Source: Gallionella sp.
GTDB lineage: Bacteria; Pseudomonadota; Gammaproteobacteria; Burkholderiales; Gallionellaceae
Assembly (NCBI GenBank): GCA_041629915.1
Contig: JBFKMJ010000001.1
Coordinates: 1 to 55,907 of the forward strand
DNA: 55,907 nt
Direction of reading: 5' to 3'
Shown here: positions 3,780-55,907 of the stretch, piece by piece
How positions within the stretch are numbered: position 1 is the stretch's first letter
How the letters are laid out: the number at the start of each line of letters is the position of its first letter
Translations under genes and position numbers: made by a program
The notes under the pieces: generated by a model
Told to the model about the DNA's origin: nothing
The model's database searches: none
What the model saw: the letters and a program-made list of their open reading frames with translations, nothing else

Positions 3780-4592
3780 TCATTGCTTTACTCCTTCATT
3801 CCGCACATCCATCCGTTGCGGTACGCAATCCTCTCCCAATAACTCGAAAATTGAGGATTGCTTCTTACATCCCGCCTCTTCCCTGCCAGCACCCCCTGCT
3901 GGTACGCAAACTCCAGCCCACTGATCGGCGAAGGCTTGTGCGATTCCCGGGTAGGTTCTGCTTCGTTCTTTCCATCTATCGTCGCTTGGTGGCAGGTTGT
4001 TTTGTCCACCGATTGTCTGGTTTGCATAAATCACCTTTGCTGCACCCGAGTCGCCGCAGCAATTCGGGCACCCATATTTTCCGAGTTCAACATCAAAGCG
4101 ATGCCCGCACCTGCACCCATACCGCCCCGGATGCACATCAGTGGGGACAAGCGGAGGAAGGTTTTTTAGCCACAAGCATGTTTTCTTGCTTGCGTCCTCG
4201 CCGAACCAGTGCGGCTGAATAATTTGATCCGGCTTGCGGATACGGGTCGAGATGCAGCTAACAGGGTTTTCAATGCAGATTCTCGGTATGGGCGCATCCA
4301 TCAGGCTTCTTACGAAATCAAGCGCCTTCTCGGTAAGCTCCGATCTCGGCACACCATTTACCATCACGCCTCGCGTATTCCAGTGCAGCCCGCTAACCGC
4401 AAGATAAGTACATGGCGGGTGGAATATGCCCACATCCCATCCATCTTTCAGAATTCCAAGTACATCGCCCTGAATGTGGTACGGGCTGCCGTCCTCGCTT
4501 TCCAGCAGGTCGCATGACCACGCATCGTGCCCTTTTGCACGGAATGCCTCACGCACCCTGCCGCTGTATTCGCATCCAACAAGCACTCTCAT
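3780..4592 (-). CDS. Phage DNA cytosine methyltransferase-like protein with an inserted Cys-rich segment
   Basis: RVLVGCEYSG...SCDLL, HPPCTYL, IENP, RSRTYPGIA; CRCG..CPNC insert. Confidence 0.7.
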   Translation of the reverse strand: MRVLVGCEYSGRVREAFRAKGHDAWSCDLLESEDGSPYHIQGDVLGILKDGWDVGIFHPPCTYLAVSGLHWNTRGVMVNGVPRSELTEKALDFVRSLMDAPIPRICIENPVSCISTRIRKPDQIIQPHWFGEDASKKTCLWLKNLPPLVPTDVHPGRYGCRCGHRFDVELGKYGCPNCCGDSGAAKVIYANQTIGGQNNLPPSDDRWKERSRTYPGIAQAFADQWAGVCVPAGGAGREEAGCKKQSSIFELLGEDCVPQRMDVRNEGVKQ

Positions 4593-4956: not shown

Positions 4957-6702
4957 CTAAAAATCCACATGGGCGGCCTCTCCGGATGAAGCTCTCTTGC
5001 GGTCATATATCGGCGCGGCGGCGGGTGATGCATCGTGATAGCGTCCGGTAACGCGGTCATAATTGAAATTAACCTTGCCGAGCTTTCCGACGATCTTGAA
5101 TTTGATCTTCTGGATATGCACTTCAACGGGCTGGCTGTCGTCAGCAAGGTTGCGCCAGATAGCAAGGCAGTTATCCGCCTTGTTGCGCCAGTTCGCGGAG
5201 CCTGAAATGTCGTATGGATTGGGCACAGGATAGGTGCCGTCTTTATCTTTGGTCATCAGCTTCGGGTGCGCCACCACGAACACGGCGACCTCGTGCCGCC
5301 TGGCGAAGTTGCGCAACCTTGAAAGCGATAGGCTGATGTATTCGGTTTCGCTCATGGACTCCGGGCGGTCGTGTTCAACCTCATTCCACGGATCAATCAC
5401 CAGCATCCTGATGCCGTCCCGCGCCACCAGTGCTGTTGCCTTGTCCATAATTTCATCAAGGCTGGGCGACTCCGGCATGATCCATTTGAAGTGGCCGTCA
5501 ATCCAATCCATTGCGTCTGCGAACTCCACCCGGCTCATGCGCTCTGTGCGTCCGTGGTTGAATGGCTTGCCGGTATATTTTTCGGCAAGCTTTGAAACAT
5601 GTAGTTTGATCGGGTAGTTTTCTGGCGAATACATCCCAATGCGCCAGCCGTGCAGGTGAGCAAGGTTTACCGCCAGCGCGTCCATTACCTCGCTTTTGCC
5701 ATGACCAGGGATGCCAGTGACGATATTTAGTTGGCCGGGCATCGCGGTAAAGAACTCGTCCAGGTCTTTCCATCCGGTGCTCGCGCCTCTTGGCAATCCT
5801 GTTTCGTAAAGGTCGTAAAGCTCGGATGCCAGTTCGCTGGCCGTGAACACGCCAACAATGGGAACCTGCCTTGCCTCTGCTACAACCTTCGCCACCGCAT
5901 CCTTGCCGTAGGTCACCAACACATCGTTGGCATCCTTGCAGCCGTCCGGCCATGTAACCACCGCACAATTCTCTGCGCCGAACCTGCGAATCAACTCGTC
6001 TTTCAAATAATTACCCGGCGCGTCGTTGTCCACAGCGATGACCCACCGCTTCACCTTTTCCAGTTCGGGCGCGTTGAGGTAATCAAACTTGTTCGAGAAG
6101 TTCTTGGTGTTTGGTGAAGGCGCACCATCCGGCACAGATACGCAATTCAGAATGCCAGCCTCTTCCAGTGATAACTTGTCGATCTCGCCTTCCACAATCA
6201 CAGTTTCGTCGGCGATGTCATTCAGCCCGTACAGAATGCGCTCTGCGCCGGACTCCATCTTGAAATTCTTTTCCCGGTCGCGGTACTTGATGTTCACCAC
6301 TTCCGCGCCGCGGTAGTACGGAAACAAAATGCAGCCGGCTTCCGCGTTAAGTTGCGGCATCCATACCTCGCGCTTGCCGATCTTATTGCGGGTTAATGCG
6401 GCCTGACTGATGCCGCGCTTTGCAAACCACTGAATTGCACCAGGCGATAATTCCGTGCCGGCATAGGACGGCTTGACGTAAGCAACGGCAGGCTTGCTGT
6501 AGGCAGGCTTGCGAACGCTATCGTCTGTCGCCTTTCCTGACCACTCGCAATGCCAGCAATGAAACATGCCCGTGTCCAGGTTCACGTTGAGGCATGGCTG
6601 GTTTTTCTTTTTGCGTGTATGGCTGCATTGTGGGCAAAGCGTTTTTATTTCGCCTGATGTGCGCCCTTTGGTGTCGATCCCGTAGTTGGAAAAGTTCAGC
6701 AT
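4957..6702 (-). CDS. T7 gp4/Twinkle-like primase-helicase
   Basis: Zinc-binding CPQC/CWHC; TOPRIM motifs IVEGEID, AVDND and KDAND; Walker A GIPGHGKS; DnaB-type motifs. Confidence 0.92.
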   Translation of the reverse strand: MLNFSNYGIDTKGRTSGEIKTLCPQCSHTRKKKNQPCLNVNLDTGMFHCWHCEWSGKATDDSVRKPAYSKPAVAYVKPSYAGTELSPGAIQWFAKRGISQAALTRNKIGKREVWMPQLNAEAGCILFPYYRGAEVVNIKYRDREKNFKMESGAERILYGLNDIADETVIVEGEIDKLSLEEAGILNCVSVPDGAPSPNTKNFSNKFDYLNAPELEKVKRWVIAVDNDAPGNYLKDELIRRFGAENCAVVTWPDGCKDANDVLVTYGKDAVAKVVAEARQVPIVGVFTASELASELYDLYETGLPRGASTGWKDLDEFFTAMPGQLNIVTGIPGHGKSEVMDALAVNLAHLHGWRIGMYSPENYPIKLHVSKLAEKYTGKPFNHGRTERMSRVEFADAMDWIDGHFKWIMPESPSLDEIMDKATALVARDGIRMLVIDPWNEVEHDRPESMSETEYISLSLSRLRNFARRHEVAVFVVAHPKLMTKDKDGTYPVPNPYDISGSANWRNKADNCLAIWRNLADDSQPVEVHIQKIKFKIVGKLGKVNFNYDRVTGRYHDASPAAAPIYDRKRASSGEAAHVDF

Positions 6703-7511
6703 ACAAACCCCCGCTCAACCTTAGCTGGCATCACTGAAAGCTGCCCGGCGTAGGATGCGTACTTGGTGGCGTTGAATAATGTTTCAGGTCGCAAATACTT
6801 TGAATTCTTTGGGTCGTTTATCCATTCAGCAGCTTTTGCGTCAATAACCAGCTTCATCTCGTCAAGCGTTGCGCCTTCATTGAACCGCGCCTGAATGAAC
6901 TGGAGGTTTGCTTTAACAGGCTTAAACCTGCTTCCGACTTTTTCGTTGAGATAATCCAGAACAGCAGAACATTCTTCGCCGTTGAATTTTGGTTTTTTGA
7001 CTGGCGTATGGTCGGGCTTGCCCGACAATGCTTTTGACTTTTCTGGGTTATTGGGTAGTTGGGTTACTGGGTTACTGGGTAGCATACAATTCGCATCGCT
7101 TTTTGATGCGTTCGCATCATTTTCTAATGCGCTTTCTAATGCGTTCGCATTACCATCGCTATGCGTTCGCATGGGTTCCGCATTCCTTCTTTCAATCTCC
7201 CACCTGGCTTTTGCGGATGCTCTAGCCAGTTCCGACTTTACATAAAGTGATGCGATTTCCTTTTCGCAGCGTTTATGTGAATACCCATTTTCTGAGAGAG
7301 TGAAAAAATCTTGCAAAACATTTTTTACAGCCTGTTGTTCGTCCGCACTCCGAGCGCATAGCGAACGCATTAAAGCTGCATCATCTGGCGTTAGGGGATT
7401 TTCGTTGGTGTAATACATATCCAACATTTGCCGATACACTCCATGCTCAAGTAAAGATAAATGCGCCGTGTCTTTTCTGTAATCACCAATGTGATGCCGG
7501 TAGTGATGCAC
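6696..7511 (-). CDS. Replication initiator (YdaU/DUF1376 N-terminus, conserved phage C-terminal domain)
   Basis: HYRHHIGDY..DTAHLSLLEHGVYR; C-terminal YLRPETLF; GTG start with AGGAG RBS. Confidence 0.85.
   Translation of the reverse strand: MHHYRHHIGDYRKDTAHLSLLEHGVYRQMLDMYYTNENPLTPDDAALMRSLCARSADEQQAVKNVLQDFFTLSENGYSHKRCEKEIASLYVKSELARASAKARWEIERRNAEPMRTHSDGNANALESALENDANASKSDANCMLPSNPVTQLPNNPEKSKALSGKPDHTPVKKPKFNGEECSAVLDYLNEKVGSRFKPVKANLQFIQARFNEGATLDEMKLVIDAKAAEWINDPKNSKYLRPETLFNATKYASYAGQLSVMPAKVERGFVC
7043..7183. repeat. Probable replication origin iterons inside the initiator gene
   Basis: ATGCGTTCGCAT at 7106, 7139 and 7161 plus degenerate copies; adjacent 9-bp TGGGTTA(C/T)-type tandem repeats at about 7043-7082. 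Confidence 0.65.
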
Positions 7512-7747
7512 TTTGCCGCTCCTTTGCAATAAATCCATTGTCCAGATGGGGTTCCGGTAAAAGGTGGGGTGGAATTGATGCGCGGAACTGTCGCATCGTT
7601 CGGTGGACTCCCTATCCACCCCAAACTGTTAAGCCGCTATCGCAGCCTTGATCTTTGCCAGCAGCCTGCGCACACCTTCGCGCCGGTTCTGGGCTTTCAT
7701 TTTCGGGATGGTGCGGGCATACCGCTTTGCCGCGAGAAATTCAGGTT

Positions 7748-7989: not shown

Positions 7990-8016
7990 TAAAAAAGCCC
8001 GCACCGAAGCGCGGGC
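7990..8016 (-). terminator. Intrinsic terminator after cro (tR1-like)
   Basis: GCCCGC-GCTTCGGT-GCGGGC followed by a T-run on the minus strand. Confidence 0.75.
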
Positions 8017-8072
8017 AAGGCCGTCCGGTGCCAGAATTGGCGGGAAGGTCGGACGGCGGGTTATGGTTTGCA

Positions 8073-8273
8073 TCAGGCGGCCTTGTCGGTTTTTACTTCG
8101 ATCATCGTGTCAGCCTTCAACACGCCGCCAGTGATAAGTTGAATTTGGCATTGTCTGGTTATTGGAATGTGCCCAGTCTTCTTCCATGAGGAAATGCGCG
8201 GCTGCGTAATTCCTAGCACAGACGCGGCTTTAACCTGCGATCCAAAATGGTTTATGAGTTCTTGATAGGTCAT
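8073..8273 (-). CDS. cro: Cro-like HTH regulator
   Basis: FGSQVKAASVLGITQPRISSW...IP..RQ.QIQLITGG.LKAD; divergent from the repressor. Confidence 0.85.
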   Translation of the reverse strand: MTYQELINHFGSQVKAASVLGITQPRISSWKKTGHIPITRQCQIQLITGGVLKADTMIEVKTDKAA

Positions 8274-8282
8274 AGTGCAGGC

Positions 8283-8323
8283 ATTTTATTCGATAGGGAA
8301 TATGCTGTCAATCCCTATCGAAT
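8283..8323 (-). promoter_or_regulatory. pR-like promoter with OR operators
   Basis: TTGACA(8311-8306)-17 bp-TAAAAT(8288-8283); operators ATTCGATAGGGAAT at 8288-8301 and AATCCCTATCGAAT at 8310-8323. Confidence 0.85.
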
Positions 8324-8380
8324 TACCTTTATTGTCATCATGGCGGAGGGATTTTATTAACTGCCACAAAAAGGACGGAA

Positions 8381-8701
8381 ATGAGCCTAGGGAAAAGAAT
8401 CAGGGAGCGCAGAATGAAGCTTGGTTATTCTCAAGCCGACCTATCTCGGTCGTCGAAAGTAAAGCAGGGAACCTTGTCAAAGTACGAAAACGACAGGGTG
8501 GAAAGTCCCAAAGCGCCAATACTTATGCGGATCGCAGCAGCATTGGAAACAACGCCAGAGTATTTGATGCATGGTACCGGAAGTGAAAGCATCCATGACG
8601 CTACAGGCACAATCAAAGAGCTGTTGAATGAGGCTCAAAAGAAATCGCCGGAAGCGATAGCAATGCTACTGGCTGCCGCAAAAGCATTACCTGATAAGTA
8701 G
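8381..8701 (+). CDS. CI-like XRE HTH repressor, no S24 peptidase domain
   Basis: LGKRIRERRMKLGYSQADLS...TLSKYEND; lies between the two operator clusters. Confidence 0.85.
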   Translation: MSLGKRIRERRMKLGYSQADLSRSSKVKQGTLSKYENDRVESPKAPILMRIAAALETTPEYLMHGTGSESIHDATGTIKELLNEAQKKSPEAIAMLLAAAKALPDK

Positions 8702-8760
8702 CCAAACGCCCAGACTTCAATCAAGTTTTTACGCTTGATTGCTTTTTTTCGCACAAATAT

Positions 8761-8802
8761 ATTCGATAGGGATTGACATGCATATTCTTTTTCGAATATG
8801 AT
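8761..8802 (+). promoter_or_regulatory. pL-like promoter with OL operators
   Basis: TTGACA(8773-8778)-18 bp-TATGAT(8797-8802); 8761-8778 is the exact inverse of 8306-8323; second operator ATTCTTTTTCGAAT at 8784-8797. Confidence 0.85.
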
Positions 8803-9329
8803 TTGTCCGCAAGCTCAGAAAACCGAGCGGCACCAGCAGCCCAGGCGCGGTGAAAGTCGAATTGAGCAGGATCGGCAAGTAGCGTTAGTCGCAATATCGC
8901 GGGCATAGTGAAGCAGGGTGATCTCGAATGAGCCTGCACTGGTAGCGAGAAACAGTCAGCAGCAAGCGGCTGATAAAGCAGCGGAGGATGCGCCGAGTTC
9001 CTTAAAATCCACGGCCAGCCGCTTACTGCTGATTGAGAATTGCGCGAAAAGCCCCGACTCGTGGAGGCGTAAGCGCAAAGCAGTGCAGGAAAGCAACGGG
9101 GCAGAGAGCCTGCATCTCGATGAAGCCCCAGCCACGCACGATATGGTTACGTGCCCATTACTGCACTTTGGTCAGCGTGCAGTCCAGGGCTAGGCCGCCC
9201 ACCTTTAACGGAGGCGATCATGGAAGAGATTTATTTCAGGCTTGAGCGGATGCGTGAACTGGTGCAGCAGCCCGGTCTTTCAATGATCTTTCGCAACGGC
9301 AGGTGGATTTATTCATATTGGAGGAAGCC

Positions 9330-9656
9330 ATGCTAGACATCGAATTTTACGAGCGCCAGCGCGAGCAGTTGGTTGAGGACACTTATCAGCGCTTGTTGCA
9401 CGAAGCCCTCAACGATATTCAAACATTCGAGGGATGGGACAGTGGGTATGAGATATGTGCCGTGAATTCCGGCCAGATACAGCGCGCATTGCGCAACCTC
9501 GGTGACGCGGTTTCCGGCAAGGGCTACGCGCAGGAAGCGGTGTTTACTGCGCTGGGCTATGTGATGGGAAGCTTGAAAACCGTACTGCGCGAGGAAGCCG
9601 ACAAGTCGGTGAAGTCCGCCGAGGAAATGCAGTTTGATGAGCGGGTGGCAGCATGA
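9330..9656 (+). CDS. Hypothetical early protein
   Basis: GGAGG RBS; ATGA-coupled to the next ORF. Confidence 0.65.
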   Translation: MLDIEFYERQREQLVEDTYQRLLHEALNDIQTFEGWDSGYEICAVNSGQIQRALRNLGDAVSGKGYAQEAVFTALGYVMGSLKTVLREEADKSVKSAEEMQFDERVAA

Positions 9657-9973
9657 CCGACCTCACCCACCAACACATCTGCGACAAGCTCAACCGCCGC
9701 GCCGCGCGTGAGCGCGATAACGCCCACATGGACGAGATCGAGCACCGCGCCCTGCCATTGCTGTACGCGGTCATGGCCGCCGCGCTGGTCACGGTGCTGT
9801 GGATCGCCACCGCCGACTATCGCGACGTGGCGGCGCATCACGTCGAGACGGCAAAGATGCGCATCGAAAACCAGATCATCAGCGCGAAGTTGGCCGCGTG
9901 CGCCAACAACGGCGTGGTGCCATTCAACGGCGCGATGTTGCAATGCAAGAGACTGCCGCTGGTGCCGCTATGA
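9653..9973 (+). CDS. Hypothetical protein with one TM segment
   Basis: Coupled ORF; hydrophobic LLYAVMAAALVTVLWIA. Confidence 0.6.
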   Translation: MTDLTHQHICDKLNRRAARERDNAHMDEIEHRALPLLYAVMAAALVTVLWIATADYRDVAAHHVETAKMRIENQIISAKLAACANNGVVPFNGAMLQCKRLPLVPL

Positions 9974-10070
9974 ACCGCCTCATCTGCTGGCTGTTCGGGC
10001 ACGCCTGGCAAAGCACCATCAGGCGCGGCACATATTGCTGCCGCTGCGGTGCCAAATGGAAGGGAATGCG

Positions 10071-10241
10071 ATGAGCTACATCCACGAGGAAATCCAGGCA
10101 GCCGTGCTGCCGCTGATGGAAAAATACGATCTCGAACTGATCGACCTGATCGGCGAACTGAACCATGCTGCGTGGGAGCTATCGGTGCTCAACCAGCGCG
10201 GCATTGCGCGGTTGGTAGAAGAATTGAGGGCAAAGACATGA
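10071..10241 (+). CDS. Small hypothetical protein
   Basis: ATGA overlaps at both ends (MSYIHEE...). Confidence 0.55.
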   Translation: MSYIHEEIQAAVLPLMEKYDLELIDLIGELNHAAWELSVLNQRGIARLVEELRAKT

Positions 10242-10504
10242 GCGCCCTCGCCTTCGAGATCACGCTGATCAGCCGCCGCACAGGCCATCCGCCTCGGCAT
10301 CCGCATGATGTCCGAATTCGACGCGCCCTGCGCCGTCACCTGCAAACCCAACAGGAGGATCGCAACATGAACCTGTACCGCACCCTCAACCACATCGACA
10401 ACTGGCTACTCAAGCGCTGGAACTTCGCGCTCAACGTCGCCTTCTTCGTGCGCCTCGGCCACGGCTGGCGCCGCGCCTGGAACATGGCAAGGAATACACT
10501 GTGA
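10238..10504 (+). CDS. Small basic hypothetical protein (alternative start at 10367)
   Basis: Coupled start; internal GGAGG RBS before 10367. Confidence 0.5.
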   Translation: MSALAFEITLISRRTGHPPRHPHDVRIRRALRRHLQTQQEDRNMNLYRTLNHIDNWLLKRWNFALNVAFFVRLGHGWRRAWNMARNTL

Positions 10505-10518
10505 ATCGCGTGTTTGGT

Positions 10519-10590
10519 GCCGAACGATGGAGGTAAGCGGGATGAATGAAGCGCAGCGGAATGAATATCCGCTTGACCGTTTTGTTATAC
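10519..10590 (-). other. attC-type recombination site (72 bp)
   Basis: Minus strand: R'' GTATAAC-5 bp-L'' GGTCAAGC-central hairpin-L' GCTTACC-6 bp-R' GTTCGGC. Confidence 0.85.
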
Positions 10591-11153
10591 CTTATGGTTA
10601 TCAGTGCATAGTCGCTGATCCGCCGTGGGATTACAAAACGCCAGGGCAGATAGGTAAAACGCTTGACCATAGACCGAATAGAGATAAGGGTGAGTCAAAG
10701 CACGGGGCGGGGAGTGTGGCACGATATGGGGCCATGACCATGCAGGAGTTAATGGCGCTACCTATAGCCGATCTAGCCGCAGAAAATGCCCACTTGTATT
10801 TGTGGACTACTAACGCATTTATGGAGCAAGCATACCCTTTGGCAAGAGCGTGGGGTTTTGAGCCAAAGACAATACTGACGTGGACAAAAACCAGAAAATC
10901 GGACGGGCAGCCCTCTATGAAAATGGGATACTACTACCGAGGTGCGACAGAGCATGTGTTGTTCTGCGTTAGAGGGAGTCTGCGTTTACAAGGTCTCGCG
11001 GCTCCAACTGCAATTTTTGCAGAGAGGCTAAAGCACAGCCAGAAACCAGAAGAGTTTTATTCTATGGTTGAGGCGCAGACCCCAGGCCCAAGGCTAGAGC
11101 TTTTTTCTAGGAAACTAAGGGCTGGCTGGAGAGCTTGGGGTAATGAGGTATAA
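10542..11153 (+). CDS. MT-A70-family adenine methyltransferase (cassette cargo; ORF also open from 10527)
   Basis: IVADPPW, HLYLWTTN, AWGF, MGYYYRGATEH.LF, HSQKPE, LELFSR..R.GW..WGNE. Confidence 0.9.
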   Translation: MNEAQRNEYPLDRFVIPYGYQCIVADPPWDYKTPGQIGKTLDHRPNRDKGESKHGAGSVARYGAMTMQELMALPIADLAAENAHLYLWTTNAFMEQAYPLARAWGFEPKTILTWTKTRKSDGQPSMKMGYYYRGATEHVLFCVRGSLRLQGLAAPTAIFAERLKHSQKPEEFYSMVEAQTPGPRLELFSRKLRAGWRAWGNEV

Positions 11154-11217
11154 CGGCTAGCTTCACCGGATCTGGCGCGGCTTTATGCGCCAGGTCCGGT
11201 GGAAGCGATAGTTATGC
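11148..11217 (-). other. attC-type recombination site (70 bp)
   Basis: Minus strand: R'' GCATAAC-5-L'' CTTCCACC-hairpin-L' GGTGAAG-6-R' GTTATAC. Confidence 0.88.
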
Positions 11218-11236
11218 AACAACTTTGGAGATTGAA

Positions 11237-11626
11237 ATGGCATCACAAATGATTGGCATGACCGAAATTGGATGGTTCAACCCTGGTGTGAATCCCCCGC
11301 CCTTTGACATGAAGCTGTTGCTGATGGTGGCTGGGTTGCGCTCTGAGGACTGCGGGCAGACATTTGAAGCCTACACGAAGGTGATGACAGCCTACGTGAA
11401 GCAGCGCGGCCCCGGCGACGAATACGATGACGAGCCTGCGTTTGATGAGTTCATGTCTGGCGACCACACTGATTTTCTCGACTTTCAGTTTTACCTGAAT
11501 GACGAGGATGGTGAAGAGCTGGACTGGTACAGCGACAGCATTGTGGCTTGGGCATATTACCCGCTCGGCCTGGCACATACTGCCGTGAATGTTGAACGCG
11601 AACGGCAGGCGGCGATTGGTGCATAA
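11237..11626 (+). CDS. Acidic hypothetical protein (cassette cargo)
   Basis: GGAG RBS; its stop TAA lies inside the GCATAAC core. Confidence 0.75.
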   Translation: MASQMIGMTEIGWFNPGVNPPPFDMKLLLMVAGLRSEDCGQTFEAYTKVMTAYVKQRGPGDEYDDEPAFDEFMSGDHTDFLDFQFYLNDEDGEELDWYSDSIVAWAYYPLGLAHTAVNVERERQAAIGA

Positions 11627-11678
11627 CGCCGGAAATCACGGGTCGGCGTAGCCGGTCCCGTGGATTGACTTGTTATGC
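11621..11678 (-). other. attC-type recombination site (58 bp)
   Basis: Minus strand: R'' GCATAAC-5-L'' AATCCACG-hairpin-L' CGTGATT-6-R' GTTATGC. Confidence 0.9.
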
Positions 11679-11699
11679 GTAACTTTTAACGGAGGCAAC

Positions 11700-11924
11700 A
11701 TGGCTACAAATTTGGCATTACAGAAAGCAGCACAAGCATGGTGTAAGGAAACCACGAGCCACAAAGAAATGGACGCGGAACTGGCCGAAGCCTTTGCCGA
11801 GATTCTTGACGAGATTTGGAGCCAGCCGTGGCTTGGAAACGCCACCACTGGGGAAATGCTCGAAGAATTGAAAACGCGGGCAGAGATTCATGGCTATTCC
11901 CGGTATCGGACTGTTGACGCATAA
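11700..11924 (+). CDS. Hypothetical protein (cassette cargo)
   Basis: GGAGG RBS; its stop TAA lies inside GCATAAC at 11919-11925. Confidence 0.75.
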   Translation: MATNLALQKAAQAWCKETTSHKEMDAELAEAFAEILDEIWSQPWLGNATTGEMLEELKTRAEIHGYSRYRTVDA

Positions 11925-11983
11925 CACGCTGTGAACGACAAGAAACGGCGGCGCTTTGCCGCAAATAGATAAGGAGAACAAAT

Positions 11984-12781
11984 ATGACTACAGCACTCGC
12001 AACACTATCCACACAACTAGCCGCAAAGTTCGATATGGGCGACGGCAGGGATGTGGCAGACATCCTCAAGGCGACAGCCTTCAAGGGCGGCACTACGCAG
12101 GTTAGTGACGCCCAAATGACCGCCTTGCTTGTTGTTGCCAATCAATACGGGCTCAACCCGTTCACCAGGGAAATCTTCGCATTCCCGGACAAGGGCGGCA
12201 TTGTGCCGGTCGTCGGGGTTGACGGTTGGGCACGCATCCTCAATGACCATCCGCAATTCGATGGAATGGAATATGAGCAGGATGATGAGAAATGTACCTG
12301 CATCATTTTCCGCAAGGATCGCAGTCACGCCATCAAGGTTACTGAGTACATGGCCGAATGCAAGCGCACTACGCAGCCGTGGCAGTCACACCCACGCAGG
12401 ATGTTGCGCCACAAAGCAACCATTCAGTGCGCGCGCCTCGCATTCGGTTTTTGTGGAATCTACGACCAGGACGAGGCTGAACGCATTATCGAGCGCGACA
12501 TGGGAACCATCGACGGCTCCACCGGCGAGATCATCCAGAAAAAGCAGGAGCAAAAGGAATTGCCGGACTACACCGACGAGCAGATGGACTTAAACATTGA
12601 TAAGTGGCAGGCCGCCATCAACGAAGGCAAGACAACACCGAAGCGCATTATTGCGATGGTTTCCACCAAGTTCAAGTTGAACGACGGTCAGGCAGCCACA
12701 ATTCGCGGCATGAAGAAAGAGGGAGCGGTTGATCCGTTTATTGCTGAAATGGAAGCCGCAGAGCAAAAGGAGGCAGCATGA
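11984..12781 (+). CDS. bet: RecT/Red-beta-type single-strand annealing protein
   Basis: QYGLNPFTREIFAFP.KGGIVPVVGVDGW...PWQSHPRRMLRHKA.IQCAR.AFG. Confidence 0.92.
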   Translation: MTTALATLSTQLAAKFDMGDGRDVADILKATAFKGGTTQVSDAQMTALLVVANQYGLNPFTREIFAFPDKGGIVPVVGVDGWARILNDHPQFDGMEYEQDDEKCTCIIFRKDRSHAIKVTEYMAECKRTTQPWQSHPRRMLRHKATIQCARLAFGFCGIYDQDEAERIIERDMGTIDGSTGEIIQKKQEQKELPDYTDEQMDLNIDKWQAAINEGKTTPKRIIAMVSTKFKLNDGQAATIRGMKKEGAVDPFIAEMEAAEQKEAA

Positions 12782-14430
12782 ACATCATTGAATTAGTCCA
12801 GGGAAGCGAAAGCTGGCACAAACACAGGGCCACACACCTAGGCGCAAGCGAGGCCGCTGCGATGCTCGGCTTATCAAAATACGTTACTCGCTCCGAGCTA
12901 CTGCGCCAGAAGGCCACCGGCCTCTGCAAGGACGTGGATTCCAATACGCAGGCCATATTCAACCGGGGTCATGAGACGGAAGCGCTGGCACGCCCCTTTA
13001 TTGAGACAATGATCGGAGAAGAACTCTGGCCTGTAACTTGTGAATCCGGCAATCTGTCATGCTCCTGTGATGGGCTGACACTTGATAATGACATTGCCTG
13101 GGAGCACAAACAGGACAGCAATGCGCTCTTTTCATCGGTTGCCACCGGAAAAATGCCGGAAGAACACCTGCCTCAGTGCCAGCAGATATTGATGATTACC
13201 GGGGCGAGCAAACTGATCTTCACGGTATCCAACGGAACACCGGAAAGAATGGCGAGCCTTGAGGTTTACCCGGATCCGGCGTGGTTCGAGCGGATCAAGG
13301 CTGGCTGGGTTCAGTTTATGCTCGACCTCGAAAATTACAGGCACATCGAACATGCCGAAAAACCGCAGGCCGAAGCGATCATGCAACTGCCCGCCCTATC
13401 CGTCCAGGCCACCGGCATGGTGACGCATTCCAACCTGCCGGAGTTCAAGGCGGCGGCGGAAAGCTACATCGCCAACATCAACACCGACCTGCAAACCGAC
13501 CAGCAGTTTGCTGATGCCGAGGCCACAGTGAAGTTCTGCAAGACCACCGAGGAAACGCTGGAAGTCACCAAGAAGGCCATCCTCGCGCAGACCTCGACCA
13601 TCGACGAAGTGATCCGCACGGTTGACCACATCCAAGCGCAGCTCCGCGATAAGCGGTTGATGCTGGATAAGCTGGTGAAGTCGGAAAAAGAGGCGCGCAG
13701 GCACAAGATGGTTTCAGACACAAACGCCCTATTCACCGCGCACCTTGCTGACCTGCAAGCCGAAATTGCTGGCATTCGCTTGGATGTTCCGTCGCCAAGG
13801 TTCGTTGATGTAATCAAGGGGCTTAAATCCCTGTCCTCGATGCACGATGCCTTGGATACCGCGCTGGCCAACGCCAAGATCGAGGCCGATGCGGTCGCCA
13901 AGGACGTGCGCGCAAAGCTGGCATGGCTCAAGCATTATGACTCGCTCAAATTCTTGTTCGCCGACCTTCAGCAGATCATATCCAAGCCGCTCGATGATTT
14001 TCAGCTTGTAATAATGAAGCGCGTGGACGCGCATAACGAGGCAGAGGCTGAACGCAAGGCCGCACATGAAGCGGAAGCAGCAAGGAAGCTGGAAGCGCAG
14101 CGCGCAGCAATACAGGCCGAGGAAGAACGCAAAGCCACCGCCAAGGCGCAGGCAGCAGCCGAGGCTATCGTTGCCGCAGAACGGGCGAAGCAGGCCAAGG
14201 AAGAAGCAAAGGCACGCGCCAAGGTTGAGGTGGAGCAGCCAGCACCGCTAACCGTGCCGCAGTCCGCACCGCAAGCGAAGCCCGACAACGTGGTCGTGAT
14301 CGAGCATCAGGACGTTATCAGCGCATTCATGTCCTCGCGTGACTTCGGCAGGGATGCCGGGAAAGTCCGGGCAATTTTGGTCGAGTTTGTGAAATTCAGT
14401 GAACACTTTGGCAGGAAGGAGGCGGCATGA
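12778..14430 (+). CDS. YqaJ-like viral recombinase exonuclease with long coiled-coil C-terminus
   Basis: QGSESW..HR...ASEA..., GH..E..AR, SCDG, WEHK, Q.QQ. Confidence 0.9.
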   Translation: MNIIELVQGSESWHKHRATHLGASEAAAMLGLSKYVTRSELLRQKATGLCKDVDSNTQAIFNRGHETEALARPFIETMIGEELWPVTCESGNLSCSCDGLTLDNDIAWEHKQDSNALFSSVATGKMPEEHLPQCQQILMITGASKLIFTVSNGTPERMASLEVYPDPAWFERIKAGWVQFMLDLENYRHIEHAEKPQAEAIMQLPALSVQATGMVTHSNLPEFKAAAESYIANINTDLQTDQQFADAEATVKFCKTTEETLEVTKKAILAQTSTIDEVIRTVDHIQAQLRDKRLMLDKLVKSEKEARRHKMVSDTNALFTAHLADLQAEIAGIRLDVPSPRFVDVIKGLKSLSSMHDALDTALANAKIEADAVAKDVRAKLAWLKHYDSLKFLFADLQQIISKPLDDFQLVIMKRVDAHNEAEAERKAAHEAEAARKLEAQRAAIQAEEERKATAKAQAAAEAIVAAERAKQAKEEAKARAKVEVEQPAPLTVPQSAPQAKPDNVVVIEHQDVISAFMSSRDFGRDAGKVRAILVEFVKFSEHFGRKEAA

Positions 14431-14603
14431 GTCCAGCCCAGCGCGTACAGCGAATCCTTGATGAGGCCGTCGGCAGCGACCTGTCATCGTGGGAGAAATT
14501 CGAGTTCTTGCCCAGCATCAAGGGGCGCACCAGCCTTTCTGAAAAGCAGGAAAAGGTTTTGCTCGGAATTGAGCAACGTATTTTTGAAGAAGGGGAAGAA
14601 TAA
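14427..14603 (+). CDS. Small hypothetical protein (58 aa, not in the ORF track)
   Basis: MSPAQRVQRILDEAVGSDLSSWEKFEF...; overlaps the upstream stop and the ssb start. Confidence 0.65.
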   Translation: MSPAQRVQRILDEAVGSDLSSWEKFEFLPSIKGRTSLSEKQEKVLLGIEQRIFEEGEE

Positions 14604-15019
14604 TGTCAGTAAATAAAGCAACCCTCATTGGCCGCGTCGGAAAAGACCCGGACATTCGCTACACCACCGGCGGTGATGCCGTCGCGTCATTCAGCCTGGC
14701 CACATCGGAAAGCTGGAAGGACAAGGCCGGCGAGAAACAGGAGAAGACCGAATGGCACAACATCACCGCCTGGCGCAAGCTGGCCGAGATCATCGGTGAG
14801 TATGTGAAAAAGGGCGATCTGCTTTATATCGAAGGCAAGATCACCACGGAAAAATACACCGACAAGGAAGGCATCGAAAAGTATTCGACCAAGATCGTCG
14901 CGCACGAAATGAAAATGCTGGGCGGCAAGCGGGATCGTGAAGAGCAGCAAACATCAACAAGCGCACCGGCAGCAAAGGCGGGTGCGTTTGACAACTTTGA
15001 TGACTCAATACCATTCTAG
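14603..15019 (+). CDS. ssb: Single-stranded DNA-binding protein
   Basis: SVNKATLIGRVGKDP...TEWH...LYIEG; acidic DDSIPF tail. Confidence 0.95.
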   Translation: MSVNKATLIGRVGKDPDIRYTTGGDAVASFSLATSESWKDKAGEKQEKTEWHNITAWRKLAEIIGEYVKKGDLLYIEGKITTEKYTDKEGIEKYSTKIVAHEMKMLGGKRDREEQQTSTSAPAAKAGAFDNFDDSIPF

Positions 15020-15028
15020 GAGACAAAC

Positions 15029-15496
15029 ATGGCGCTCTGCAAAGTTTGCGGCACATCTGATATGAATTTGTTTTATAGCTCTATCAAAACGTATTGCAAG
15101 GAACATTGGAAGATGCTCGTTCGTAAGAACCGAATTGAAAAGATCGAGCACTACAGGACGTTCGACAAGGCAAGGGCATCAATGCCGCATCGCGTTGCAG
15201 CAAGACTTGAATACGCAAACACCCCAAAAGGCGTTGCGGCTCACAACCGCGCAAAGTTCAAATGGTCGGAGCGGAACAAAAAGAAGCGTCATGTTGCCAT
15301 AGCCGTAAACAATGCAGTCCGCGACAAGAAAATCACAAAACCGGATTCATGCCAAGAGTGCGGTAAGGTTAATTGCAGGATTGAAGGGCATCACGACGAC
15401 TACACAAAGCCAATGGAAGTTCGATGGTTGTGTTCAACGTGTCATCGCGCTTGGCATAAAGCAAATGGATCGGTTGAATATAAGGAGGCAGCATGA
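15029..15496 (+). CDS. HNH-like zinc-finger protein
   Basis: CQECG...EGHHDDY.KP.EVRWLC..CH..WH. Confidence 0.7.
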   Translation: MALCKVCGTSDMNLFYSSIKTYCKEHWKMLVRKNRIEKIEHYRTFDKARASMPHRVAARLEYANTPKGVAAHNRAKFKWSERNKKKRHVAIAVNNAVRDKKITKPDSCQECGKVNCRIEGHHDDYTKPMEVRWLCSTCHRAWHKANGSVEYKEAA

Positions 15497-15711
15497 CCGA
15501 CATTGAACCACTGATGACCCAAGCAGAGGTAGCAGAGCTTCTGTCCCGGCTTGCCAATATCTCCGCGCGCCACGTCTATGATCGCTGGGTGCATTTACCG
15601 GACTTCCCAAAGCCTGTATTATTGCCGGTAGCGGTCGGGAGCAAGCGACCTAAACGCTGGCACCGGGCGGACATTGTTGAGTGGGCGGAGCGGCATAAGT
15701 TGGCGGCGTAA
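15493..15711 (+). CDS. Excisionase / AlpA-like recombination directionality factor
   Basis: LMTQAEVAELL...PDFPKPV...RW.RADIVEW; adjacent to attP. Confidence 0.8.
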   Translation: MTDIEPLMTQAEVAELLSRLANISARHVYDRWVHLPDFPKPVLLPVAVGSKRPKRWHRADIVEWAERHKLAA

Positions 15712-15745
15712 TCTCACGAATCACACATAACGGCTCGCAAAGCCT

Positions 15746-15761
15746 TGTTCCACGTGGAACG
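15746..15761. promoter_or_regulatory. parS-like palindrome
   Basis: TGTTCCACGTGGAACG; matches the chromosomal parS palindrome TGTTCCACGTGGAACA at 15 of 16 positions. Confidence 0.6.
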
Positions 15762-15782
15762 CGAGTCCCCCCCCCGGCACCA
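15762..15782 (+). other. attP core = 3' end of a tRNA (probably tRNA-Leu)
   Basis: CGAGT-CCCCC-CCCCGGC-A-CCA parses as T-loop end, T-stem, acceptor stem, discriminator and CCA. Candidate arm repeats CACG(C)AATCACACAT at 15715 and 15923. Confidence 0.8.
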
Positions 15783-15935
15783 CCGCAATAGGGCGCAAAG
15801 CCCGTAATCAAGCCACTTGCAGCCAATAAGTGGCTTTTTTATTGCGCTTTTTTTACACACGATTTACCGCGTGTTTACACGCTTTCCCACATTCAGGCAT
15901 AATCCGCCACTCATAAAACACACACGCAATCACAC

Positions 15936-16916
15936 ATGGCCAGCATCAAACCGCACAACGGGAAGTGGCGCGTTTTCATTTTCAAGGCTGGTGTACGCAA
16001 AACGAAGGTGCTCAACACCAAGACCGCCGCCCAAGCCTGGGCAGCCCAGACCGAGGCCGACATTACCACCGGTAAGGCTGGCGGCATCCCCAACAAGACC
16101 TTTGCCGACCTGCTGAACCGCTACGCCGAGGAAGTCAGCCCGACCAAGCGCGGGGAGCGGTGGGAGCGGCTACGCATCGGCCTGACGCTGCGCGATCCTG
16201 TGGCCTCTGTGCATCTGCGCGACTTCGATTCGCGCGCCGTGGCGGCATGGCGTGATCGGCGGCTTGGCCAAGTATCAGCGGCAAGCGTCCACCGCGAATG
16301 GAATCTACTATCAAATGCCTGCACCATCGCCGTGCTGGAATGGAAGTGGCTGCGCGACAATCCGTTTCGTGAAGTGAAGCGGCCAGCCGAGCCGGAGGCG
16401 CGGGACAGGATAGCAACCGACGATGAACTTGATAAGCTGCTATTCGCGCTGGGCTACGACAAGGAAGCCACCCCGCTTACGGCCTCCGCCAGGGTTGGCG
16501 CTGTCATGCTGTTCGCCATAGAAACGGCCATGAGAGCCGGAGAAATTGCCGGATTGGCGTGGTCTAGCGTGAAGCTGGATAAGAGGTTTTGCCGGGTTGA
16601 GGGTGGCAAGACTTCGGCGGCCAAGCGCGACGTGCCGCTATCCGCCGAGGCGATCAGGATCATCGAACAGATGCCGAGGGACGCAGATACGGTTTTCAAC
16701 GTCACCGCATCGCAGATAGACTCATTATTCAGGAAGGCGAAGGGCAAGGCGATGATCGAGGATTTGCACTTTCACGACACGCGACACCTAGCCATCACCC
16801 GGCTGGCGCGCAAACTGGATGTGCTGGCTCTGGCTCGAATGGTTGGGCATCGAGACCTACGGATGCTCCAGCTCTACTACAATGAATCCGCCGAGGATAT
16901 GGCCGGCAGGCTGTAA
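15936..16916 (+). CDS. int: Tyrosine integrase (Rci/HP1-like subgroup)
   Basis: TAMRAGEI, GGKT, HFHDTRH, VGH, LYY catalytic set. Confidence 0.93.
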   Translation: MASIKPHNGKWRVFIFKAGVRKTKVLNTKTAAQAWAAQTEADITTGKAGGIPNKTFADLLNRYAEEVSPTKRGERWERLRIGLTLRDPVASVHLRDFDSRAVAAWRDRRLGQVSAASVHREWNLLSNACTIAVLEWKWLRDNPFREVKRPAEPEARDRIATDDELDKLLFALGYDKEATPLTASARVGAVMLFAIETAMRAGEIAGLAWSSVKLDKRFCRVEGGKTSAAKRDVPLSAEAIRIIEQMPRDADTVFNVTASQIDSLFRKAKGKAMIEDLHFHDTRHLAITRLARKLDVLALARMVGHRDLRMLQLYYNESAEDMAGRL

Positions 16917-16977
16917 TCCCTCCGACTCCCCGCCCCTTCCCTAGCGCGAGAACGGGAACAGGGGTAGGATGCGCAGC

Positions 16978-17121
16978 ATGGAACTCCTAGTCCTGTTCGC
17001 TATCGTGCTATTCGCCGTCCTGGCCTACGCCCCGGAAGCTGCCTTGCAGATTCTACTGGCCGGCGCATGGCTGCTGATGATTGTCGCCGGGATCGTCGGG
17101 ATACTGATTAAGGTGTTCTAG
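16978..17121 (+). CDS. 47-aa membrane protein (not in the ORF track)
   Basis: MELLVLFAIVLFAVLAYAPEAALQILLAGAWLLMIVAGIVGILIKVF; two hydrophobic helices. Confidence 0.55.
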   Translation: MELLVLFAIVLFAVLAYAPEAALQILLAGAWLLMIVAGIVGILIKVF

Positions 17122-20100
17122 CCTCAAAATTGTCCACGGCAGTATTGAAGCGCAGCATTTCGGCAGTAATCCGATCCTCCACACTCCTGATTTTCTCCCT
17201 TGGCGCATCCTTCTCGATCAGTTCCCGCTTCTGCTTGCGCAGCTTGGCTATGATCTTGTCGGCATACCTTGCCCGCATTATCAACTTAGTCTTGGGGTTT
17301 TCCTTGCGGAACTCGTCGGTGGGCAAGTGATCCTCGCGCCGGCCTTTCAGTTCCATTTCAATCATGTTGATCTCTTTCAGGTTAGCGTAATACTTGGCGC
17401 CCTGGCTGGATTGGTTTTCCAGATTGCCGTAGAACCGCCCCACCAGCGGCATCTTGTGCGTCGGCAAGTCCTCGCCGGTGTAAATCGCTTGCCCGGTCTG
17501 CGCAAGTTTTGAGGTCTCGCGCCCCACGCCGCCCGTCACCTGCCCGATCAGGTAGTCTATCTGGTCGGCGGTCGGGCTGAACGTGCCCGGCGTGTAATCG
17601 GTGCCGCCGGTCGCGTAGTTGATGCCTTCCGCCATGAACTTCGACCATGCGCTTGCCGTGTCCTTGTTGCGCGTGAAGCCGGGGGTTGGGTCGAGCGAGC
17701 TGAAATCTTCCTTGTAGATCGTCTTGCCCGTCCAGTCCTTATTCGCTTCGAGCGCGGCAAACGGATCAAACGCGGTCGGCAGGACGGTCTGCATGGATAT
17801 TCCGGAGCTGCCCATCGGGTTGAAGGCTTCCGCGAACACACCCATCAAGCGGAACACATGATCAGCAGGCTTCTTGAATCCGCCCAGCGCGTACTCGGTG
17901 GCGATTCGCCCGACGTTCGGGATGGCGTGAAAGCCCAGCGGCATCGGGATGCTGATGTAGCGCTTGCCGCCCATCGCCCAGCCAATCGGGAAAATCAGGT
18001 TGCGCTCGCGTATGAATTCAGGCGGCTCGTCGTCGAACCCGGCAGCGGCCAGCGCCAAAGCCTGCATCACGCCCAACAACACCCCGCCCGCCACGATCTT
18101 CTGCCCGACCTTGGACAGGCGCAGCGTCTTGATGTCGCCGCCCTTCATATCAAATACGTTCTCGCCGATCCGCGCCGTGCCCTGCATCGCGGCATTGAAG
18201 AAAGCGTATAGCGCCCCGGCCTGCTGCCCGGACTGCCCCTTGCGGTTGAAGTTGACGGTGGTGTTCTTCGCCAAGCTGGCCGCCGCCTGTTTGGTCATGC
18301 CGTGATCGATGGCGGTCTTGTAGATTGCCAGCCGGGTCGAACCTTCCATCATCAGGTTGTAGTCGGACAGCCAGTCGAACAGCGGCGACGCCATATCCTG
18401 CGCCGTGGTCAGTGGCACTTTCAGCATCCCGCCAGCCGTGAACACCTTGCCCCACTTACTGTTCACCCAATTATGCGGGTCAAGTTCGTGCTCGATGGCC
18501 TTCGCCCTATCCTCGCTGTTACGGTACAGGTCGCGGTAGCCGGTCATGCCGCCGCTGTCCTGCAATTCTTCCCACAATCCAGCCCACTTCGATGTTGCTG
18601 GCGCGCCCTTGCGCTCGGCGCGTGCATCCAGATAGATGCCCTTTGCCGCCGACAGGACATGCCCCAGCACTACCTTCTGCTTGCCCGCTAAAGGCGTGGA
18701 GGTCAGATTGAGCGCCGCAGCCTGCACGTCGCGCACCAGGTTGGTCACGCCGAAGATCGGGTTGTATTGGGTGTTGATTGCGGAGAAGTAGCGGGTGATC
18801 TTGGCCGACACACCCAGCAATCCGCCAAGCTGTGTGGCGTCCAGGTTCTTCATCGACTCAGCCATGCGCACGGCGCGCTCGTCGTGCTCGTTGAAGATAA
18901 CCGCGCGCTCGTGAATTTGCCCGTTGCTGTCCTTGATCTTGGCGACCACTACGTTCGGTTTGCTCCTGAACGTCGGGTCGATACGCTCTTCCACCAGCCC
19001 GGTCTTCTCGTTCAACACGCGCTCGGTAGGGGGTTTGTCGAAAGACCAGAAATCCGGGTTCGGGTTGAGCTTTGCCAGCCCAGCCAGCGCCACGGCGACG
19101 CGGTTCTTCTCGCCCCGGACGATGGCCTTCTCGCGCTGCATGGCGATGTTGGCGAGGATGTCCACCACCTTGGCGGACGAGCCGGTGCGGTGCTTGACCT
19201 CTTTGCCTTTGATCGAAAAGCCCTGCCCGACGCCCATGCCGCCGTCGTGATCCTCGCGCATCAGCGGGACGTAGTGCTTGAACATTTGCGCCCAGCCGTC
19301 CACCTGGTCGCGCGATACCAGCCCGTAGGAGGCGTAATATTCGCGCGTCTTGGCGAGGATGGCGTCCACCCGTCTGGCCGTTGCTTCCAGTTGATTGCGC
19401 TTCGTGCCCTGCAGGTTGGCGAAGTAATCGTCCGCTTCCTGGTTGGTCATGCCCGAGCCGCCGTCGGGCATGTTCGGATCGCGGCTTGCGATCAGCGCGT
19501 TTGCTTCCTTGGCGTGGCGGGCGTGCAGATATGCGTCAAGTTCTTCCTGCTTCATTCCGCGCTGCGCCATCTCGATCATCATCGGCTTGAGCTCGGTGTT
19601 CACAAAGTCTTGCACGCGCTTGGCCGCCCTGCCGTGGAACAACTCCTCCTGAAGGTAGGCGTTCCACTGCTCGGCAACTTGCGCACCCGTTTCGCGGATC
19701 GCTTGCAGCACGCGCTTGAGGTCGATGTTTTTGTCCTGGAGCTTGTAAACCAGATCGTCGAACATCGAAGGTTCAGGCGAATCCCATGATGCGCGGTTGC
19801 CGGGTTGCCCTCCTTGAAGCGTGATATTGCCTTGGCGTGGAGGTTGCGCCGGTGGCTGCGCCGTGCCGGGGATGGGTTGCTGCTTGGGTGCGCTGGAGAA
19901 CAGCGGCGTGTCGCCCCACATCTCCTGCTCCAGTTTGACAAGATCGCTCTGATAGAGTACCTTGTAACTGCTCCCAGCGGCGGACTCACCACCAGTAGAA
20001 GCTCCTCGGGTGGACAGAGGGGTTTCGCTACCTCGGGAGTATTTCTTTTGCGCGACATTAAGCGCAATACGCACAACATCCGGTATTTTCTTCGTCGTGT

Positions 20101-34933: not shown

Positions 34934-34962
34934 CAATAAAAAAGCCGCCCGAAGGCGGCTTG
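34934..34962 (-). terminator. Intrinsic terminator (identical 29-mer at 42829-42857)
   Basis: GCCGCC-TTCG-GGCGGC followed by a T-run on the minus strand. Confidence 0.85.
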
Positions 34963-42828: not shown

Positions 42829-42857
42829 CAATAAAAAAGCCGCCCGAAGGCGGCTTG
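42829..42857 (-). terminator. Intrinsic terminator after the capsid/decoration genes
   Basis: Same UUCG hairpin plus T-run as 34934-34962. Confidence 0.85.

Positions 42858-55258: not shown

Positions 55259-55907
<649 letters not shown>

Follow-up and report, generated by a model that had tools for sequence, protein, structure and literature searches.

The early operon of a temperate phage holds an array of three attC cassettes in which every gene runs antisense to the attC top strand. This reversed layout is the rule among the phage contigs that we sampled, and the three-cassette example, itself modest, stands for a phage pattern that is widespread and apparently undescribed. We consider it likely, judging from sequence, that an integron integrase (IntI) of the host acts in trans on this array and recombines its reversed cassettes at G|TT.

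Three attC sites in the early operon of a temperate phage

The window analysed here, a stretch of 55,907 nucleotides, is the entire contig C1 of a MAG (G000; 1.6 Mb, 284 contigs). The contig is a temperate phage, with genes for a repressor, a replication initiator, Bet, an exonuclease, SSB, an integrase, terminase, portal, capsid and endolysin. Its termini share a 141-base overlap, and the phage contig is likely, though not certain, to be circular. Both termini lie inside a transposase element (55767–55907 plus 1–752), presumably IS3-like, that matches contig C7 of the MAG at 94–100%; the element represents either a link between phage and host DNA or an assembly loop. Further features outside the array are a second DNA methyltransferase (3780–4592, minus strand, phrog_757), a 4096-aa ORF adjoining the integrase (17108–29398, minus strand) that is probably a giant virion or injection protein, a 642-aa gene with internal repeats (33350–34025), and a 29-bp direct repeat with two intergenic copies in the late region (34934–34962 and 42829–42857).

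The array is located within a plus-strand early operon, between bet and a strong sigma70-like promoter (8773–8802, plus strand, 11/12 match) that is predicted from sequence to drive the operon through the array. Directly 3' of the array are the genes for the Bet-like annealing protein (11984–12781, plus strand) and, after it, a RecE/YqaJ-like exonuclease (12778–14430, plus strand). The replication initiator gene (6696–7538, minus strand) contains short repeats and the GC-skew minimum of the contig is near 8005, which together place the replication origin, likely at ~7–8 kb, to the left of the array. Rfam returned 0 matches over 8000–17200, and a tRNA search found none.

A sequence-only reading of this DNA had described three imperfect palindromes with canonical attC geometry on the minus strand, and we could reproduce all of their coordinates and boxes: site 1 at 10519–10590, site 2 at 11148–11217 and site 3 at 11621–11678. 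With the minus strand as top strand, all three sites (3/3) show an R'' ending in AAC, a 5-nt spacer, an 8-nt L'' with an extra C at position 4, a 6-nt spacer and an R' starting with GTT, and L'' pairs with L' at 7/7 positions. The strict geometry (extra C plus 7/7 pairs) was absent from 20/20 dinucleotide shuffles of the window, while a looser rule gave 10 matches in the window against 2–10 per shuffle, so it is the strict geometry alone that exceeds chance. We also carried out the covariance-model check that had been proposed, using our own model (R1, not that of IntegronFinder) built from 22 IntI-adjacent attC sites of related bacterial genomes and three TJE1 sites. R1 matched exactly these three sites in the window, at full length and on the minus strand, with 21.4, 30.4 and 32.5 bits for sites 1, 2 and 3, respectively (E-values are rough), and gave no further match at E≤5. 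Geometry and covariance model both ruled out a plus-strand reading of the sites.

Site 1 is the weakest of the three. Its E-value lies above the E≤0.1 threshold of a genome-wide R1 search, in which it is missed, and its R' (GTTCGGC) departs from the GTTRRRY consensus because it forms the outer junction of the array. The lowest-energy fold of site 1 is not the attC fold (z of −0.6 and −1.1; sites 2 and 3 lie between −3.6 and −6.1). The pairing probability of its bottom-strand boxes is 0.013 in the array and 0.11 as a circle, a roughly eightfold gain; sites 2 and 3 reach 0.34 and 0.32, and seven control sites range from 0.023 to 0.84. Computed folding thus shows a clear recombinogenic hairpin for sites 2 and 3, and one that is a minor fold for site 1. 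The terminal hairpin of site 2 finds 78–100% matches in chromosomal attC sites of same-genus genomes. With three sites in one orientation within 1.2 kb and no integron integrase nearby, we conclude from these sequence features that these are true attC sites, which together constitute a CALIN rather than a complete integron.

Cassette genes run antisense to attC

Cutting at G|TT gives one-gene cassettes of 629 bp (10525–11153), 473 bp (11154–11626) and 298 bp (11627–11924), confirming the sizes given previously. Cassette 1 consists of a hairpin followed by the gene for a 203-aa MT-A70 family DNA methyltransferase (10542–11153, plus strand, longest ORF from 10527; PF05063, E 8e-29; phrog_359). 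Cassette 2 encodes a 129-aa phage protein with a weak DUF551-like lead (11237–11626, plus strand), and cassette 3 a 74-aa protein for which 256 homologues were found (11700–11924, plus strand); neither protein belongs to a known family in Pfam, PHROG or NCBIfam, and their Atlas matches are leads. Cassette 3 is predicted, by the inferred order, to be the most recently inserted. As had been claimed, the leading core complements its own R'' in 3/3 cassettes, with GTTATGC/GCATAAC twice and GTTATAC/GTATAAC in the methylase cassette. The stop codon of each gene is the TAA of the crossover box. Both the ribosome-binding site and the start codon (ATG) of the methyltransferase gene fall within the hairpin of site 1, which codes for approximately residues 1–16; attC-free homologues of the methyltransferase align solely from residue 15–20 on. 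Terminal extensions that resemble, by eye, the read-through of coding-strand attC hairpins were observed in three homologues of the 74-aa protein (P0030, P0049 and P0094).

All three cassette genes are plus-strand genes, in antisense orientation to the top strand of attC, a point absent from the sequence-only reading. Canonically, a cassette gene shares the attC top strand and is followed at its 3' end by attC, and 3/3 genes depart from this orientation: the recombinogenic attC bottom strand is their coding strand and every hairpin lies 5' of its gene.

To place this layout, we used one degenerate attC pattern that is blind to genes. In 12/64 parts of the viral contigs it gave 139 loci, with ~650 viral stretches estimated overall; from its matches in 401 bacterial genomes of the same class we took 30 loci, or 29 minus the window's own. 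Sites above a score cut were counted, and polarity was called with a simple gene caller for which the window and bacterial arrays served as checks. Among 107 viral contigs with a site above the cut, 90 were reversed, 7 forward and 10 undecided, compared with 22 forward, 3 reversed and 1 undecided for the 26/29 bacterial loci with such a site, and with 21 forward, 3 reversed and 3 undecided for 27 sites in IntI-adjacent arrays; the contigs in these counts include relatives that are not independent of one another, gene calling was crude, and ordinary integrons may have been excluded by the viral classifiers. For 28 loci that were oriented by their genes, 71/72 model matches were antisense. An initial polarity test by stop codons (bottom 85/214, top 53/214) suffered from shadow ORFs, and the gene caller took its place. 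One reversed attC array of small genes is located in a same-genus bacterial genome (L243, G042:C63, 1173–2314) and is probably a prophage.

Homologues break at the predicted crossover

Homologues of all three cassette genes, not identical copies, are found as cassette genes in different arrays with G|TT boundaries, and for two of the genes, homologues located in other phage arrays break at the predicted crossover. For the 74-aa gene, the match ends exactly at 11925 in 6/8 loci (L049–L054, four of them near-identical); the other two are a locus without attC (L055) and a weak match (L056). For the 129-aa gene, we found 14 loci and kept the 11 with both ends intact, leaving out L209–L211 as shortened or cut; these 11 full-length homologues carry nine different sequences directly 3' of the TAAC box. 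The end boxes covary, reading GTTATGC/GCATAAC in the window and GTTAGGC/GCCTAAC in 10/11 homologues of gene 2 as well as in L051. These breakpoints support the earlier claim that cassettes are gained or shuffled at G|TT.

Complementarity of the cassette ends extends over the sampled arrays. R'' matches the leading core of its own cassette in 132/176 viral cassettes, compared with 25/176 for the core within the same site (shuffle mean 21.6, maximum 33), and the corresponding numbers for bacterial cassettes are 19/22 and 2/22.

Pairs of homologous cassettes show what travels together with a gene. For L107/L178 (body 100% identical), L200/L209 (96%) and L202/L203 (98%), identity is 1.0, 1.0 and 0.96 for the gene's own front hairpin and 0.46, 0.62 and 0.47 for the other hairpin, where random hairpins have a median of 0.53. 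In the remaining 15/18 pairs, which are more distant, front-hairpin identity is 0.47–0.82, and these low values indicate that hairpins are also replaced, something that plain R' recombination does not explain. The contention that cassettes move by recombination "rather than homologous module exchange" was therefore too absolute, since front hairpins too are replaced over longer distances. The phage contigs L107 (1110–2812) and L204 (1–1703) are identical over 1703 bases and diverge 2 bases past the crossover box; at this divergence the hairpin of L204 is collapsed to a few bases.

Hairpins and genes also occur apart. Homologues of hairpin 1 are present in L207, L217 and L224 at 85–92% identity. 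Among 13 methyltransferase loci, L217 has a front hairpin of 92% identity before an MT-A70 protein of 39% identity, L224 has the hairpin-1 homologue before another gene, and 11/13 are without a site. Homologues of genes 2 and 3 exist as ordinary attC-free genes (L341, 4001–4351, and L055, 3001–3222, respectively).

The comparison with related phages that had been called for succeeded at the level of genes, whose homologues break at the crossover, and returned no empty-site or changed-content allele of the phage itself among viral, metagenome, phage-collection and run-contig searches. No nucleotide match to the array or its flanks was found among relatives of Bet (26 viral and 80 metagenome loci), metagenome contigs contained no relative of the 106-aa gene upstream of the array, neither of two flank motifs matched a viral contig, and the phage collection held nothing relevant. 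Assembled contigs of four runs, which drop rare variants, contained no joint at the crossovers; in the part of one X4 contig that was covered, the match begins at 11926, which is no more than a hint. Joining the flanks of the array at 10524/11925 creates a 7-bp inverted repeat, with its left arm at 10508–10514 (plus strand) and its right arm across the reconstructed junction. This repeat, a pattern that was noticed first and tested after, is reached by 283/200000 random junctions, and it suggests that the flanks may once have been contiguous.

The recombinase and the array ends

The contig encodes a single tyrosine recombinase, an ordinary prophage integrase (15936–16916, plus strand) that lies 4 kb from the array and is not IntI (blastp to IntI, E 1.5). 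Searches of the contig and of the whole 1.6-Mb MAG found no IntI, and the intI gene required of a complete integron is absent. Of the phage-borne cassette system proposed earlier, the array on the phage stands; the system is not self-contained, as the contig lacks an integron integrase. IntI exceeds the cut-off in 12/24 same-genus genomes, most of which are much larger than the MAG. Among 49 viral records with attC sites (50 loci, mostly picked for long contigs), one carries IntI, and its array is forward; none of 16 near-complete viral records does. The MAG has chromosomal attC of its own (L342, G000:C159, 1501–2117), in forward orientation with a two-gene cassette and no IntI assembled; the two genes resemble what we take to be a bacterial toxin–antitoxin pair. 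Binning and attC likeness point to the genus of the MAG as the host.

The array terminus (11919–11936, minus strand) is a candidate attI or attG entry site, consisting of a bare core (11919–11925) and a weak L-box-like hexamer (11931–11936). Its attI score is 1.48 bits, in the top 4.1% of 1615 GTT sites, where host attI sites score 4.4–9.3 on a matrix built from eight host sites that were chosen with a self-defined motif. A bare own core closes 28/44 viral arrays (control, 4/44), and at 11/28 of these ends a host-type attI L box exceeds the 99th background percentile. Near-perfect host-type L boxes were observed at the ends of L061, L066, L071, L079, L107, L108, L119, L122 and L130, and no IntI was found in the eight of these nine records that were searched.

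Discussion

Our data are best explained by a reversed cassette array on which a host IntI probably acts in trans. The coding (plus) strand would be the attC bottom strand and would fold when single-stranded; IntI would then cut at TAA|C, and a unit of hairpin, ribosome-binding site, gene and stop codon would leave or enter as a circle. Incoming cassettes would be added at the right end (11924/11925) and transcribed from the phage early promoter. An origin near 7–8 kb that fires towards the array would make the coding strand the lagging-strand template, a placement reported to raise attC recombination when occupied by the bottom strand (accessible text of PMC5371416), and reversal might in this way let genes run with replication while recombination stays frequent. 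A slower process would replace the front hairpin, likely through top-strand recombination or Bet/Exo annealing. IntI is a member of the SOS regulon (PMC8946536), which means that phage induction and IntI expression could coincide. Counting against this reading are the missing IntI on phage and MAG, the rarity of IntI among viral records with attC sites, the missing empty-site allele, the weak right end, the poor fold of site 1 and the unshared front hairpins of the more distant cassette pairs.

An integrase-free route, in which the hairpins serve as short linker homologies and genes are swapped between co-infecting phages by annealing through the phage's Bet/Exo system, would account for the bet and exonuclease genes directly 3' of the array, for a contig without IntI and for the replacement of front hairpins. 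We nevertheless regard it as unlikely. Identity between the three sites is 54–61% and the longest run that they share is 7 bases, breakpoints are concentrated at the TAA|C box, and own-core complementarity, the extra base and attI-like ends would all be superfluous for annealing; moreover, a site is nearby in just 4/106 loci of Bet relatives.

It is quite improbable that IntI inserted the cassettes in the past, in the present or an ancestral host, and that the array is now fixed and decaying. The computed folds of sites 2 and 3 resemble those of active sites, all three cores are still perfectly complementary, and the MAG is much smaller than most same-genus genomes, although the weakness of site 1 and of the right end, the lack of IntI in the MAG, the lack of a variant junction in contigs of four runs (contigs drop rare variants) and the attC-free homologues (L055, L341 and 11 MT-A70 loci) would all fit such a history. 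That another recombinase works the sites, be it the integrase of this phage or a small recombinase encoded by a helper phage, is very unlikely, given that the tyrosine integrase present on the phage is of the ordinary prophage type, distant from the array and dissimilar to IntI, and that site 2 resembles chromosomal attC of the host genus.

Recombination of a reversed array by host IntI, the reading that we favour, would give phages a precise, site-specific trade in accessory genes, an added route to mosaicism that borrows the host enzyme. Bottom-strand selectivity has been described as the device that orients cassette genes in sense behind the integron promoter (PMC8946536, in the portion available); a large phage pool with the same sites and reversed genes systematically breaks this rule. 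Gene families that occur both with and without attC provide a testable handle on the origin of cassettes and CALINs.

More speculatively, and with considerable doubt, phages might run a mirror-image integron, in which a phage attI and a pool of reversed phage-gene cassettes are served by host IntI, the recombining strand is the lagging template, reversal acts as a firewall and cassette birth is visible. If so, host cassettes, of which many are anti-phage, would arrive in the phage in antisense and stay silent, just as phage cassettes would stay silent in the host; a cassette would be born when a hairpin lands before a free phage gene, to which it can even donate the start codon. Anti-phage cassettes are the topic of 10.1101/2024.07.02.601719, as far as its accessible part goes.

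Comparison with known systems

Phage CALINs with methyltransferase cassettes and no IntI have already been published (Qi 2023, PMC9892861), and the window shares with them the short attC array, the lack of IntI and the methyltransferase cargo. That study reported 17 phage CALINs among 10,705 genomes, whereas one narrow pattern here leads to an estimate of ~650 viral stretches. IntI1 recombined 5/6 phage attC sites tested there, with bottom-strand preference, PH101 attC2 among them. The TJE1 and PH101 arrays were described as typical, and the accessible main text does not mention antisense genes. We located PH101 attC2 (Table S3 of PMC9892861) on the plus strand of NC_029094 at 76529–76585, where the flanking genes are encoded by the minus strand, meaning that one site of a reversed array has already been validated with IntI1. 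By our polarity calls the published arrays of PH101 and MW202573 are reversed and that of TJE1 is forward; R1 found no site on the published array of P12002L. In a literature search that excluded most subscription papers and bioRxiv supplements, we found no paper on reversed polarity of phage cassettes.

With bacterial integron arrays the phage array has in common the attC geometry, the G|TT crossover, own-core complementarity and the hairpin family of site 2. It differs in that its genes run opposite to the attC top strand and the hairpin precedes the gene, to which it can supply the start codon. In addition, the phage array is without intI or Pc, viral cassettes are shorter (median 409 bp versus 618 bp), and new phage cassettes would enter at the promoter-distal end.

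In attG insertion and SALINs (Loot et al., 10.1101/2022.09.11.507474, accessible text), bare GWT sites that lie outside integrons can be seeded with cassettes by IntI, and the array in the window ends in a bare GTT core. As presented in that text, those cases are bacterial genomes with forward cassettes, whereas 11/28 of the viral ends are attI-like, not attG. The 'reverse integron' of Treponema denticola (PMC4909258) shares just the word: in the available part of that work it is an integrase gene co-oriented with the array, while the reversal in the phage array is one of the genes relative to attC.
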